Below, piece after piece: positions 12,699 through 55,287 of a stretch of 64,000 nucleotides of DNA. The stretch lies in the IMG/VR virus record IMGVR_UViG_3300030107_005396, one strand, 5' to 3'. Source of the stretch: an uncultured virus (IMG/VR IMGVR_UViG_3300030107_005396) (Duplodnaviria; Heunggongvirae; Uroviricota; Caudoviricetes). Every line of letters begins with the position of its first letter. Within the stretch, counting starts at the first letter, position 1. A program made the translations under genes and the position numbers. The notes under the pieces are model-generated. The model ran no database searches. It worked only from the letters and a program-made list of their open reading frames with translations, and was not told the origin of the DNA.

Positions 12699-14043
12699 TG
12701 TTAATCTCCAATCCTAAAGATTCATAGGATTTTATTCGCTCCTTGGCGTGTTTTTCTAAGTAAGGAGCACGGTCAAAGAAGTCGTATATGAATACACGGT
12801 TCTTAGATTTATGTATACGTAAAGCTCGTCCTAAAGCTTGTAAAGTAGCAATCTCCGATTTCAACCCTCTAGCGTTAACGAGGTGTGTAATTTCAGGGAT
12901 ATCTATACCTGTTTGCATAATAGTAGTTCCGATAAGAACACTGGACTCAGTATTTTTAAAATACTCAATAGTTTTTTGTCGCACGTTCAAATCGTCTTTC
13001 CCTTCCAACTTAAAAGAGTTGGGGATATTGTCGTGAAGAATCTCAGCGTGTTTTAAGTCTTTTACAATAACCAAAGTTTTGGAAGGTTTTTGTTGTATTT
13101 TTTTTACGAGCTCTGTAATCATATCGTTACGTAACTCATTTTCTGTAATAAACTTTTCATAAACTTCTCGGTAAGAAAGTTCTGTATCTTCTACCGTCCC
13201 TGTATCTTTAACGGGAATGATTTGGATGAGGGGTTTTGTTAAGAATCCTTCATCGATAAGACCGAGAGCATCCACGTCTTTAATAACCTTCCCTAACCCC
13301 GATATTAGATTTAACCGGCTCATAGGGTCTTTAGGAACAGTAGCAGTCATTCCTATTCTGTACGCCGCGTTGGGAAATGATTTAATAACTTTAGTAGCGA
13401 CCTTTCCCTTGGAAAATTCATGGACCTCATCAAAAATAATGAACTCCGAGGAGTTGAGATGCGTATCTATAACTTTGTCAATCGATTGTACGGTGCATAA
13501 AGTTATAGGTTTTATAATAACACCGTCCCCAAAAGCCATTCCTACGTCTAAGCCCCATTTGGTCAGGTCATCATAGGTTTGTTTAAGAAGCTGCTTTTTA
13601 GTAAAAAATACCAGTCCGGTTTTATCTTTCAAAGCTTTGAGGATACCCCCTAACACCAGAGTCTTTCCCGCGCCCGTAGGGGCTTGTAAAATACAGCCCA
13701 TTTCTGAGAGAGCTTGGCGGACCAAAGATTCTTGGTAATCTCGTAAGGTTATTCCGGGCAAAGAGATATTATCTAAATGCGGACAGTCCCTTAAATCTTC
13801 TATTTCGCAGTCGATGCCTAAATAAGTGAGGTCTTCGTAAATATAAGACCATAACCCGGTTCCAAATCTACCTGTTTTGTCGGAGAAAAAATATTTTTCA
13901 CCGTTCCAACCTCTTGTTTTGTAGGCTGCAGAATAGTTATAACCAGGAACCTTAGCGCTATATTTTCTTTTTAGAGTTGACAATAACTTTTTATCGTCAG
14001 TTTTTAAAAAAGAATAATTATTATTTATAATAATTTTTGGCAT
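12688..14043 (-). CDS. uvsW: SF2 DNA helicase, UvsW-like
   Basis: LRDYQ, APTGAGKT, DEVH, GMTAT, TGIDIP, QALGRALR; N-terminal VPGY..GWNG. Confidence 0.93.
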   Translation of the reverse strand: MPKIIINNNYSFLKTDDKKLLSTLKRKYSAKVPGYNYSAAYKTRGWNGEKYFFSDKTGRFGTGLWSYIYEDLTYLGIDCEIEDLRDCPHLDNISLPGITLRDYQESLVRQALSEMGCILQAPTGAGKTLVLGGILKALKDKTGLVFFTKKQLLKQTYDDLTKWGLDVGMAFGDGVIIKPITLCTVQSIDKVIDTHLNSSEFIIFDEVHEFSKGKVATKVIKSFPNAAYRIGMTATVPKDPMSRLNLISGLGKVIKDVDALGLIDEGFLTKPLIQIIPVKDTGTVEDTELSYREVYEKFITENELRNDMITELVKKIQQKPSKTLVIVKDLKHAEILHDNIPNSFKLEGKDDLNVRQKTIEYFKNTESSVLIGTTIMQTGIDIPEITHLVNARGLKSEIATLQALGRALRIHKSKNRVFIYDFFDRAPYLEKHAKERIKSYESLGLEINNEK

Positions 14044-51013: not shown

Positions 51014-51033
51014 CCTCTAGATACATCTAGAGG
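51014..51033. repeat. 20-bp palindrome CCTCTAGAT-AC-ATCTAGAGG upstream of the head-assembly cluster
   Basis: Perfect 9-bp arms read directly from the sequence. Confidence 0.8.
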
Positions 51034-51050
51034 AAAACCTCACTATAATT

Positions 51051-51719
51051 ATGAAGTACATCATCAATGAAACCAACTCTTGCGGACAAGCGAGCTTGAC
51101 CGAAGCCCAGCGTAATTCCGTGCTACAATCTTTAGGTTATGAGGTTGAGGAAGAAACGCTAGAAGAAAATCAAATTTCTTTTGACGAACTATCGGCTAGA
51201 CGCGAAGAAGCAGACGCTCAAGATTCTGAGGATATGCCAACACTTTATGAGTGGGATGACTCAGTGTTTGCTCTTGATGATGAAGTATTTGAAATTGACG
51301 GTAACCTATTCTTAAAAGCTATTGAATTAGATGCTGATATTCGTATGGCTCTAGATGAGTCTCACGCCGACCTGTTTATTAACGAAGTTCGTTTTGACGA
51401 AGCTGAGTGGTCTTTAGGCGATATATATGACTACGGTGATGAAATCTTTATCGCTTTAAATGAAGGCGATAAGAAAGGTGACAAGTCTAAGGACAAGCCT
51501 GGTGACAAGCCTGACTACACTACTGATGCTCGCAAAGGCGACAAAGGTAAAGGCAAAGACAAGGATGATAAAGGTGATTTCGAAACTGGTATGCGCAAAG
51601 GTGACAAGTCTAATCAAAAAGACAAAGAAGGTGACAAGCCTGATTTCACTACTGACATGCGTAAAGGTGACAAGTCTAAAACTCACCCTGGACGCAAAGA
51701 TTTTGTAAAAAAAAAGTAG
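51051..51719 (+). CDS. probable prohead core / internal protein (acidic domain plus K/D/G repeats)
   Basis: IINE, LTE, LEE and LNE candidate protease sites; repeats GDKPD[YF]TTD[AM]RKGDK; first gene of the head cluster. Confidence 0.7.
   Translation: MKYIINETNSCGQASLTEAQRNSVLQSLGYEVEEETLEENQISFDELSARREEADAQDSEDMPTLYEWDDSVFALDDEVFEIDGNLFLKAIELDADIRMALDESHADLFINEVRFDEAEWSLGDIYDYGDEIFIALNEGDKKGDKSKDKPGDKPDYTTDARKGDKGKGKDKDDKGDFETGMRKGDKSNQKDKEGDKPDFTTDMRKGDKSKTHPGRKDFVKKK
51477..51680 (+). repeat. degenerate coding tandem repeats (KGDK / GDKPD-TTD-RKGDK)
   Basis: Recurrent GGTGACAAG(T/C)CT units in the DNA. Confidence 0.75.
51710..51716 (+). other. -1 frameshift / slippage site A AAA AAG within an A9 run
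   Basis: GTA AAA AAA AAG TAG; the -1 frame is open for 69 codons. Confidence 0.65.
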
Positions 51720-51925
51720 TTAAGGAAGAAGAGGACCCAAAAGCTAGGGTTCAACGTCAAATTGCTAACCTAGATACTTCTTCCCCTAAGGGACAGGAGA
51801 GAGCTAACTTCTTAAAAAGACGCCAACGTGCACAAGCGTTGGATAAGAAACGTCCAATAACCAAGCCACAAGCAGCTTCGGATGCTGCTGCTAAAGCTGC
51901 GGCTAAATCCCATGGAGACATGTAA
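51716..51925 (+). CDS. 69-aa frameshift extension of the 51051 protein (not in ORF track)
   Basis: VVKEEEDPKARVQRQIANLDTSSPKGQERANFLKRRQRAQALDKKRPITKPQAASDAAAKAAAKSHGDM*; its TAA overlaps the next ATG (TAATG). Confidence 0.65.
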   Translation, partial: VVKEEEDPKARVQRQIANLDTSSPKGQERANFLKRRQRAQALDKKRPITKPQAASDAAAKAAAKSHGDM

Positions 51926-52395
51926 TGAGTAAATCGTACGCAGAAATGGCAGACGACATTCTTAACGGGGCTCTTACTGACCCCGCTAAGAATCCCTATG
52001 ACCCGGCAACAGGACACCAAGCCTCTATGCCTGCGATGGACCCGAATGATAGATTAGTGGAGATGAACGATTCCCAAAGAAATCTTCTATTAGCTCACGC
52101 TGGCGTAGACGCTGAACCACTTAACGAAGCGGTTAGGGAAACCCCTCAACCTCAACCTCAAGTGGTTACTCCTCAGGAAGTCGATACTTTAAACGAAGCG
52201 TTACGAATTATCCAAAAAATTCAAGAGGCTACAACAGTAGGAAACCTTGGGGTTAACATGGCTGGTCCGAGTGGGGATGCTAAATCCGTAAAACTTCCGG
52301 GGGATACTAACACGTCCACCCCTAAAAAGCGAGTCAAAAAAAAGACTAACAAACAACCCCTAGGAAATGATTTTCTTTCCTATTTAAAAGCCTAA
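51925..52395 (+). CDS. probable prohead core protein
   Basis: Directly before the protease; LNE, LNE and IQE sites; shares EATTVGNLG with the capsid protein. Confidence 0.65.
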   Translation: MSKSYAEMADDILNGALTDPAKNPYDPATGHQASMPAMDPNDRLVEMNDSQRNLLLAHAGVDAEPLNEAVRETPQPQPQVVTPQEVDTLNEALRIIQKIQEATTVGNLGVNMAGPSGDAKSVKLPGDTNTSTPKKRVKKKTNKQPLGNDFLSYLKA

Positions 52396-52396
52396 C

Positions 52397-52996
52397 ATGT
52401 TATTAAGAGATTTCAACGATTTTCAACCGTTACAAATTCTAAGTGAAGCTAAAGGTACCAAGACTATGAAAGTCCGAGGAATCTTTAGTGAAGCTGAAAA
52501 GAAAAATGGTAACGGACGTATTTATGCCAAAACCCTTTTAGAAAGGGAAGTGCAAAAACTAGCCCCGCTTCTCGCTGAACGCAGATTATGCGGGGAACTG
52601 GACCATCCGAATGATGAGGTGGTACACCTTGCAAACGTATCTCATATCATTACCAATTTACAAATGGAGGGAAATAAGTTAATTGGAGAAGCAGAATTTT
52701 TGGATACACCATCTGGTCGAATATTGCAGGAACTTGCTAAAGCGGGAGTTCGTATTGGAATATCTTCTCGCGCTACTGGTTCTGTGGAGCATGACATGAA
52801 AGAAGATGCTTACATGGTGCAAGACAACTTACGTATGATTACCTGGGATATGGTAGCCGACCCCTCCTGCCAGAACGCATTTCCGCAGTTAGTCGAGCAT
52901 AAACAGCTTATGGAAAACCGTTCACAACTAGATTCCGCAGATGCACTCGTATCTGAAAGATTATATATTGAGGGATTAAGGAGACTTTTAGGCTAA
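52397..52996 (+). CDS. gp21: prohead core protease, T4 gp21-like
   Basis: NGNGRIY, GELDHP, VSHII, LDTPSGRIL, GISSRATGSV, DMVADPS. Confidence 0.96.
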   Translation: MLLRDFNDFQPLQILSEAKGTKTMKVRGIFSEAEKKNGNGRIYAKTLLEREVQKLAPLLAERRLCGELDHPNDEVVHLANVSHIITNLQMEGNKLIGEAEFLDTPSGRILQELAKAGVRIGISSRATGSVEHDMKEDAYMVQDNLRMITWDMVADPSCQNAFPQLVEHKQLMENRSQLDSADALVSERLYIEGLRRLLG

Positions 52997-53637: not shown

Positions 53638-55287
53638 ATGTTAAATCCTGAACAAACACGTTCTTTATGTGAGAAGTGGGAGCCTATCCTGGAAGGAATC
53701 ACCGATGACTCTACTCGTCAGATGACTGCCGTTCTTCTGGAGAACCAAGCAAAGAGTATTCTTACTGAGAACGCTCGTGAGCAAGGTACTCTTGAGGAAG
53801 CAACGACTGTCGGTAACCTCGGCACTTTCCAAAAATTCGCTTTCCCTCTCGTTCGCCGGGTATTCCCGGAACTGATTGCCAACAAGATTTGTGGCGTCCA
53901 GCCTATGCAAGGTCCTGTTTCCCAGATTTTCTATCTAGGTTACAACCGTGCTGGCAACAGCGGCTATTATGGCGGACCGCCGAACAACGAAGTTGTTTAC
54001 AGCCGTTACCGCATGGTATACGGAGGTCGCTTCGGTGAAACTCAAAGCAACATTGGTACTTTGGATAACAACCTAGGTTGGGCTGCTGGTAATGACGGTG
54101 GTGTATCTGGTAACTTCGCTTACTCTGGTCTTTCCGGTGGTAATATTACTACTTGGACCTCTGGTACTGCTGGTGGTAAGATTGCTGCTTTCCCAAATGA
54201 AAACTGGGTTGGTGCACAGTACTTCGTGTCTGCTGGCGAGCGTTTAACTGGCTCAGGTATTCCTGAAGTTAACTTCACTATTGAGCAACAAGCTGTAACT
54301 GCACGTACTCGTAAGTTCCGCGCCCTATGGACGTTGGAAGCTTCACAAGACCTTCGTGCTTATCACAACTTGGACCTTGAGCGTGAATTGACTGAGCTTC
54401 TTTCTAAGGAAGTTGCTTTGGAAATCGACCGTGAATTGGTAGAATCTTTACGTAACATCGCTTACGCGTGGGGCAATGGCTCTGCGATTGGTGGTGGCTT
54501 GTGGGATTATCAAAACCAAGGAAACTCCAACAGCTTCCCGAGTGACGGCGCCCCTGACGGCGGCCAAGGCACTGGGGCTACCATTAGTGCTCCTGGCTCG
54601 TTTACTTACGGCCAACCTGCGGGTAATGACCCAGTAGGTCAAGGACACGTATCTGGTGTTGTTGCAGGGTCTAACCCTGGTGAAACCACAGTGACAATGC
54701 CGACTGCAGAACAAGGTTCAAACGTGTTCTATGTAGACTTCGGTACTACTGCACTTGGATTAGCTCCTCGTCACGTTGGTGAAGTGTACAGTAACTTAGT
54801 TGCTGTCATTAACTTTGCTTCGCAAGACATCTACCGCACGACTCTACGGGGTGCCGCAAACTGGATTGTTTGTTCACCTTTCGTCGCTGCAATGCTACAA
54901 TCAGCTGCTAAACTAGAAGGCGGTATTGGTATGGACCAAGCTGGCCAGCTAGGTGCTACGATTGAGTATAAAGGTAAATGGATGGGACAGTATGACGTAT
55001 ATGTTGACCCGCTTTATCCTGAAGATGAAATCATGCTTGGTTACAAGGGTGGTTCTCCGATGGATGCAGGTTTTGTGTACGCTCCGTACATTCCGCTCCA
55101 AATGCTACCAACTATCACGGACCCAGAAACGTTCCAGCCAAGAAAAGGTTTAATCACTCGCTATGCGACTGCTCAGATTAACCCTGCTTCTAGGTTCTAT
55201 CGTATCATCCGTATCGTTGGCGCTGATAGCCGTTACCTAATCACTCCGTTCGCGAAGGCGGGACGTAGTGGGGATGCTCTTTACTAA
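53638..55287 (+). CDS. gp23: major capsid protein, T4 gp23-like
   Basis: KWEPILE, LLENQ, PLVRRVFP.LIA..ICGVQPM.GP, TARTRK, ELTELLS.E...EIDRE, YAPYIPL, FQPRKG..TRY. Confidence 0.98.
   Translation: MLNPEQTRSLCEKWEPILEGITDDSTRQMTAVLLENQAKSILTENAREQGTLEEATTVGNLGTFQKFAFPLVRRVFPELIANKICGVQPMQGPVSQIFYLGYNRAGNSGYYGGPPNNEVVYSRYRMVYGGRFGETQSNIGTLDNNLGWAAGNDGGVSGNFAYSGLSGGNITTWTSGTAGGKIAAFPNENWVGAQYFVSAGERLTGSGIPEVNFTIEQQAVTARTRKFRALWTLEASQDLRAYHNLDLERELTELLSKEVALEIDRELVESLRNIAYAWGNGSAIGGGLWDYQNQGNSNSFPSDGAPDGGQGTGATISAPGSFTYGQPAGNDPVGQGHVSGVVAGSNPGETTVTMPTAEQGSNVFYVDFGTTALGLAPRHVGEVYSNLVAVINFASQDIYRTTLRGAANWIVCSPFVAAMLQSAAKLEGGIGMDQAGQLGATIEYKGKWMGQYDVYVDPLYPEDEIMLGYKGGSPMDAGFVYAPYIPLQMLPTITDPETFQPRKGLITRYATAQINPASRFYRIIRIVGADSRYLITPFAKAGRSGDALY

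Follow-up and report, generated by a model that had tools for sequence, protein, structure and literature searches.

In phage T7, a frameshift near the end of a structural gene lengthens the protein at its C-terminus, giving the 10A/10B products. The heptamer A AAA AAG is a classical -1 ribosomal site, at which a single tRNA-Lys reads both codons; in Escherichia coli dnaX, a Shine-Dalgarno-like element precedes it, a strong hairpin follows it, and shifting yields the shorter of the two products. A/T runs around nine nucleotides long extend over the RNA:DNA hybrid and cause bacterial RNA polymerases to slip, and transcriptional slippage is found at the A9 run of Thermus thermophilus dnaX. Passages of PMC5221750 describe -1 frameshifts that add tails at the ends of phage structural genes, namely the major head protein of Lactobacillus phage A2, the tail proteins of SPP1, and PSA, and also a proposed AAAAAAA site followed by TAG in open reading frame (ORF) 10 of Enterococcus phage phiEf11. 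According to PMC4256274, the interrupted tssM gene of Citrobacter rodentium yields two length variants via transcriptional slippage, and mxiE of Shigella, cited within PMC2853527, is subject to transcriptional slippage on an A/T run. Here, we consider a gene in the head-protein cluster of an uncultured marine T4-like phage, contained in a 64,000-nucleotide stretch of DNA (the window; IMG/VR record IMGVR_UViG_3300030107_005396). The gene ends on nine adenines and a TAG and is followed by an open -1 frame, and it probably yields a short and a long isoform through recoding that has been maintained.

The elements of the locus lie on the plus strand. The 0-frame ORF (51051..51719) encodes 222 amino acids. 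Its N-terminal part is acidic and is predicted to form a beta domain; disordered GDK repeats come next, and the ORF finishes with KSKTHPGRKDFVKKK and the stop codon TAG (51717..51719). Its final codons, GTA (51705-51707), AAA, AAA, and AAG (51714-51716), contain an A9 run (51707..51715), the proposed slippage site, and the heptamer A AAA AAG in 0-frame phase (51710..51716) with TAG immediately after it. Upstream, the -1 frame is closed by a TAA (51677..51679), and a shift is thereby confined to the 37-nt interval between this codon and the TAG. From 51680 onward, the -1 frame contains no stop until a TAA at 51923-51925, and it reads KKKVVKEEEDPKARVQRQ ... AAAKAAAKSHGDM. Its part beyond the junction comprises 69 codons (51716-51922; 51716..51925 with the TAA), which begin VVKEEEDPKARVQRQ, include the stretch RVQRQIANLDTSSPK, and end KSHGDM. 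This extension is basic, with an isoelectric point (pI) of 10.3, and is predicted to be helical from the model of a homolog. The predicted long form has 291 amino acids, and its junction, whether produced by a -1 slip or by a tenth A, would read ...DFVKKKVVKE.... A tenth A in the run restores the frame exactly, and relatives of the L031 and L081 type have A10 in frame.

The 205 bases that separate the 222-residue ORF from the next gene thus hold an open -1 frame, the TAA of which shares one base with the ATG of that gene (51925-51927). These elements had been put forward in an earlier reading of the window, referred to here as the original prediction. The gene end with its A9 run and in-phase heptamer, the open -1 frame between the TAA at 51677 and the overlapping ATG, and their coordinates were all verified in the sequence, as was the lack of an early start codon; the only start-type codons in the extension are a TTG 28 codons before its end and the final ATG. 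When the 207-nt stretch was shuffled by mononucleotides, the -1 frame was free of stops in 416 of 20,000 cases, and over the same stretch the 0 frame has four stops and the +1 frame eight. Read-through of the TAG and an alternative genetic code were considered and are out, given the four stops in the 0 frame and the alignment of homologs in the -1 frame. No tRNA genes were found in the 64-kb window. The A9 run is the sole homopolymer of nine or more in the window.

Relatives were gathered with the gene and its downstream neighbor as queries; viral contigs contributed 22 loci and metagenome contigs 72. These 94 related marine contig loci together with the window form 95 sources, which were classified by script. 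Split genes that need a -1 shift account for 22 rows (20 by script, with L027 and L068 placed separately) and 16 distinct junction sequences, and none of the rows or distinct sequences needs +1. The gene runs in frame into the tail in 14 rows with an A9 or A10 run (10 distinct) and in 21 rows with no such run (16 distinct), making 26 distinct in-frame relatives in total. Seven rows (3 distinct) have no extension, ending in ...DFEKK and a stop with the next gene after it, and 31 rows are uninformative because of an unrecognized neighbor or other gene context (21), 5' truncation (8), or divergence (2, L021 and L058).

An A9 or A10 run is present in all 16 distinct split junctions, at the same place as in the window, and every one of them requires -1 (sign test, p=3e-5). 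Splits make up 16 of the 26 distinct junctions with nine or more adenines and none of the 19 without (Fisher p=1.4e-5). The -1 frame of every split locus is open to within -1 to +3 nt of the ATG of the next gene, and the interval in which the shift is permitted, 13-49 nt among the split loci, always includes the A-run. Every split relative also has an in-phase A AAA AAA/G, which is trivially true of any A9 run. Conservation of an A-run, a stop, and an open -1 frame in homologs, to which the original prediction had looked as a check, is therefore found in the 16 distinct split junctions. Homologs with a single continuous ORF had been named as evidence against recoding, and they do occur, in 26 distinct relatives; they show that the tail is coding, and recoding is not refuted by them since 16 others are split.

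Several in-frame relatives show the tail joined directly to the gene. L002 reads in frame across the junction (...KKKVVKEEETPQDRVKRQ...), L031, L032, and L033 are in-frame twins of the window context with AAT GT-A10-GTA GTT AAG GAG, and L081 has GT-A10-GTAGAT in frame. A pattern search with the 69-residue tail alone returned 575 hits, none of which was confirmed, and this represents a miss of the search since L002 holds a close in-frame copy. Between the window tail and the C-terminus of L002 there are 26 synonymous and 14 non-synonymous differences, so that 14 of about 69 codons differ non-synonymously, with a synonymous divergence (dS) of 0.97 and a non-synonymous divergence (dN) of 0.09. 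A similar excess is seen in pairs of loci that are both split: L047-L048 (dS 0.63, dN 0.07), L055-L060 (dS 0.20, dN 0.033; 12 synonymous to 7 non-synonymous differences), and L067-L068 (dS 0.29, dN 0.09), the dN/dS values of split-split pairs being 0.10-0.29. The split context, DFV-A9-GTAG, is the same in the window and in L047 even though their tails are synonymously saturated, with 39 synonymous differences on 48 synonymous sites and a dN of 0.26. These values point to purifying selection on the extension, also where both of the loci compared are split.

Two explanations would remove the need for recoding altogether. If the true run were A10, the gene would be one ORF of 291 amino acids and the split a sequencing or assembly error, a concern raised in the original prediction. 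Homopolymers are error-prone, A10 restores the frame, and the L031 and L081 loci display GT-A10-GTAG in frame. However, assembled contigs from public runs reproduce A9 without an indel in three runs and two studies. A contig of 1923 nt (X1 rec4, where X1 may be the source sample) covers 51632-52400, and another (X2 rec9) covers 51639-51825, both with 0 differences and 0 gaps. A contig of a separate study (X3 rec17) is exact over 51645-51727, past which 184 different letters replace 190, a length difference divisible by three, before the contig rejoins the next gene. Four runs were covered by this check, and none of their contigs had an indel listed at the A-run; the 16 listed public runs include no RNA. 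In addition, each of five split junctions was recovered in a pair of contig records that agree without a mismatch over 330-410 nt (11 of the 16 pairs were compared). An assembly slip is made unlikely by these independent contigs and by the A8/T8 runs of the window, at 13098, 17831, and 52336, all of which lie within intact ORFs. A platform artifact is likewise unlikely, since the project with contig prefix Ga0209756 assembles in-frame A9 (L071) as well as split A9 (L048 and L068), and random error would not have given one direction in 16 of 16 cases. An error in the run is accordingly very improbable. The second explanation, that a small gene of its own or an untranslated spacer occupies the 205-bp stretch, is hardly credible. 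It can point to a stand-alone open frame that ends at the start of the next gene, but this frame has no usable start in the window. ATG, GTG, and TTG are wholly absent from 4 of the 15 split extensions examined, and in no extension does an ATG stand close to the beginning, which rules out independent initiation of the tail. Moreover, 26 distinct relatives have the stretch joined in frame to the gene upstream, and its -1 frame is subject to purifying selection.

A more substantial rival is a hypermutable tract with a dispensable tail, in which the A9/A10 run gains or loses an A in the DNA as a form of phase variation, the 222-residue form suffices, and reversion keeps the tail ORF. We regard this as rather doubtful, but it draws on several of the observations that weigh against maintained recoding. 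The three distinct relatives without any tail indicate that the tail can be dispensable. In a tree of the 156-residue neighbor gene (37 rows, those of fewer than 120 residues or with an unrecognized neighbor having been dropped), the state requires at least eight changes among the 37 tips, five of them forced by well-supported branches, and the one clade that is entirely split, of seven rows, has a Shimodaira-Hasegawa-like approximate likelihood ratio (SH-aLRT) support of only 80. Near-identical neighbors differ in state, L034 being split and L031 in frame, and splits are confined to runs of nine or more; on this evidence, switching between the split and in-frame states is frequent. The main weakness follows from this, as the constraint on the tail may partly predate the splits and stem from in-frame ancestors. 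DNA replication slippage in homopolymers tends towards deletions, so a uniform direction of splitting is possible without recoding. The 60 nt downstream of the junction show no consistent stimulatory RNA fold, with a mean z of -0.71 in split against -0.46 in in-frame loci. Lastly, minority alleles are invisible in assembled contigs, and the A9 run may hide some A10. Against a merely hypermutable tract stand the 16 of 16 distinct splits in the same direction, the integrity of every tail ORF up to the next gene, the low dN/dS between split loci together with the all-split clade, and the split context that the window and L047 have in common despite the divergence of their tails. RNA polymerases slip on such runs, so that some of the long form would be expected in any case.

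Maintained recoding is thus, in our judgment, the probable explanation. The hidden extension by recoding that was originally predicted is upheld by the 16 splits of the same geometry, the homology of the tail, its purifying selection, and the reproducibility of A9; the hairpin of that prediction is not conserved, and no consistent stimulator accompanies the site. From the sequences we infer the slipped products, their mechanism and ratio, and the role of the tail. Standard decoding would give the 222-residue form that ends at the K-run, and a minority of expression events would shift to -1 on A9 and so append the helical tail of 69 residues. RNA polymerase would put a tenth A into some transcripts, to which a -1 ribosomal slip at A AAA AAG before the TAG may add, and both routes give the same protein of 291 amino acids. 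Among uncultured marine T4-like phages, selection would keep the arrangement throughout a clade whose lineages would flip between an in-frame A-run, with the long form as default, and a run that is one A short, with the short form as default. In those in-frame relatives that have A9 followed by GTAG, the loss of one A in the mRNA would create ...AAG TAG and thereby the short form, and the family may therefore always make both forms.

The sequence context is compatible with either mechanism. A AAA AAG at 51710-51716 follows the X XXY YYZ pattern of dnaX-type heptamers in the 0-frame phase, and the overlapping -1 frame is open, conserved, and without a start of its own, as is looked for at a dnaX-type site. 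The run equally has the properties associated with transcriptional slippage, as a homopolymer of about nine or more in which one inserted base restores the frame. Among the classified loci, junction runs are either 9-10 or at most 6 long, and lengths of 7-8 are never seen, which fits a length threshold such as that of the RNA:DNA hybrid. Given the A-run of nine or more shared by all split loci, the gap in lengths at 7-8, and the behavior of polymerases on such runs, slippage of RNA polymerase appears to be the likeliest mechanism, with -1 ribosomal slippage as a possible contributor.

The downstream hairpin noted in the original prediction does exist, as a weak stem of GGACCC (51733-51738) and GGGTTC (51747-51752) with an 8-nt loop (51733..51752), but it is not conserved in relatives. 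Its z is -1.5 and it lies 16 nt past the heptamer, compared with a spacing of around 5-9 nt for stimulators. A different hairpin, GGARGA-N4-TCYTCC, is found 7-8 nt past the A-run in five loci of one tail type (L047, L048, L034, L031, and L044), with the variants GGAAGA-N4-TCTTCC and GGAGGA-N4-TCCTCC representing one compensatory A-U to G-C change. This hairpin is at typical frameshift-stimulator spacing, occurs in both split and in-frame loci, and is absent from the window.

A more far-reaching proposal, which is possible and which we offer tentatively, is that the A9-A10 tract acts as a clade-wide isoform rheostat. Slippage would always yield a tail-less and a tailed version of a prohead-internal protein, the gain or loss of one A in the DNA would invert their ratio, the protease would remove an assembly or targeting tail at [VLI]-x-E, and the slippage rate would set the number of copies per head. 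The tail itself would be a plausible assembly domain, later cut off by the prohead protease after the K-run. As judged by reading of the tails, most of the forms that bear one have [VLI]-x-E after the K-run, as VKE, LKE, LTE, LDE, or VEE. Passages of PMC5694885 state that T4 gp21-family proteases cut after Glu, and according to passages of PMC9958956, gp21 degrades or trims the core proteins of T4. Cleavage at the candidate motif is plausible. The peptide that would be released is basic only in the extension type of the window, other tail types being acidic or mixed.

The tails and the repeats that precede them vary in further ways. At L006/L043, the last 36 residues of the N-terminal part of L006 are identical to those of the window (51609-51716), and a wholly different tail type, LDEDEYDLEAELAKND, follows; the A-run seems to be a point of exchange for tail modules. 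GN/NG dipeptide repeats (GGCAAC-type) stand before the K-run in L031, L032, L033, L068, and L081, and their copy number differs among otherwise near-identical contigs. The GDK/KSKTH.G.DF repeat module also appears in other architectures. It lies at the C-terminal end of a protein longer than 580 amino acids in L007, is fused to a Cys-containing acidic tail in L004 and L005, and is located upstream rather than downstream of the LYEWD beta domain in L077 and L080; L009 has it in another architecture as well.

The gene following the extension encodes 156 amino acids (51925..52395) and served as the anchor query for relatives. It is succeeded by a prohead serine protease of the Peptidase_S77, or T4 gp21, type (52397..52996; Pfam expectation value (E) 4.9e-18, phrog_207 9.2e-48), a scaffold-like coiled-coil protein, and a major capsid protein of the Gp23 family (53638..55287; Pfam E 4.4e-80). 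The capsid protein shares about 33% identity with cyanophage gp23, and the 222-residue gene matched none of 50,697 phage records in blastn and tblastn searches. By these two measures the phage is an uncultured, distant marine T4-like phage with no cultured relative. Neither the 222-residue protein nor the tail matched a Pfam or PHROG family at E<=0.01. An AlphaFold model of the in-frame homolog L002 has a mean predicted local distance difference test score (pLDDT) of 64.5, with a confident beta domain at residues ~58-133, low confidence in the GDK-repeat region, and helices in the tail, where residues 227-248 have a pLDDT of 83-89. Fold searches with this model found no BFVD hit at E<=0.001 and a best Z of 4.1 against 48,161 PDB chains, while the best feature score in the ESM Atlas, 0.79, is below lead level. 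The tail helices matched a scaffolding fragment of phage Pa193 over 40 residues (Z 3.6), a match that was rejected as no better than the unrelated rows around it. The original assignment to the prohead core accords with the nearby gp21-like protease, scaffold-like, and capsid genes, but it finds no counterpart in sequence or fold relation to the T4 core proteins; we infer a prohead core protein from position and composition, not from family membership.

Three further observations concern the surroundings of the gene. A perfect 8-bp palindrome, CCTCTAGA-TACA-TCTAGAGG, lies at 51014-51033 between the stop of the upstream gene and the start of the 222-residue gene, with no T-run after it, and its CTCTAGATACATCTAGAG is also visible upstream of the homolog in L001. 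The motif E-ATTVGNLG is common to the 156-residue protein (IQ-EATTVGNLG-VNMAG, 52225-52251) and the capsid protein (LE-EATTVGNLG-TFQKF, 53797-53823); in the latter it occupies residues 54-62, just ahead of the Pfam Gp23 match that starts at residue 63, and it may represent a common maturation site for the prohead protease. Finally, the A8 run at 52336-52343 is in frame within the gene for the 156-residue protein (GTC AAA AAA AAG ACT), in a K-rich stretch near the C-terminus.

For annotation, the consequence is a practical caution for viral metagenomes. Gene callers give a protein of 222 amino acids and an empty gap of 205 bp here, and ocean metagenomes contain at least 16 distinct sequences of related phages that meet the same fate, so that a conserved protein segment is missed. 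The comparative case is well replicated across loci. If the slippage is real, the family would provide a natural series for a recoding site, with in-frame, split, and tail-less states within one gene family, and a route to understanding how slippery tracts evolve and what sets the isoform ratios in T4-like head assembly.

Tail-adding frameshifts and poly-A slippage are already known, and it is the context of a putative T4-type prohead gene that appears to be new as far as we have found. A literature search, which was not exhaustive, turned up no description of recoding in prohead or scaffold genes of the T4 type, and the words "prohead", "scaffold", and "T4-like" are absent from the first 300,000 characters of the review PMC5009743. 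In relation to the T4 prohead core proteins (gp67, gp68, and the internal proteins), the protein described here is similarly acidic and disordered, with candidate x-x-E sites that suit proteases of the gp21 family, and its gene is similarly placed, two genes upstream of a gp21-type protease with the gene for the 156-residue protein between them, and near scaffold-like and gp23-type genes. It differs in that no sequence or fold relation to them was found in Pfam, PHROG, the 50,697 phage records, or the fold searches. With E. coli dnaX, the locus shares the identical heptamer A AAA AAG in the correct phase; unlike in dnaX, neither stimulator is evident, a stop comes immediately after the heptamer, and shifting would lengthen the product. 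Thermus dnaX, mxiE, and tssM resemble it in having a homopolymer of at least nine, a frame that is restored by one extra base in the mRNA, and a short and a long product, whereas here the slippage is a proposal from sequence and would take place in a late gene of a lytic phage, transcribed by a phage-modified host polymerase. Compared with A2, SPP1, T7, and phiEf11, the gene encodes neither a major capsid protein nor a tail-tube protein but an uncharacterized T4-like head-cluster protein, its run comprises 9-10 adenines, relatives toggle between in-frame and split states, and no conserved downstream structure was found. What unites it with these systems is a slippery run just before the stop of a virion-assembly gene, from which a minority product would arise with the same N-terminus and a tail encoded in the -1 frame.

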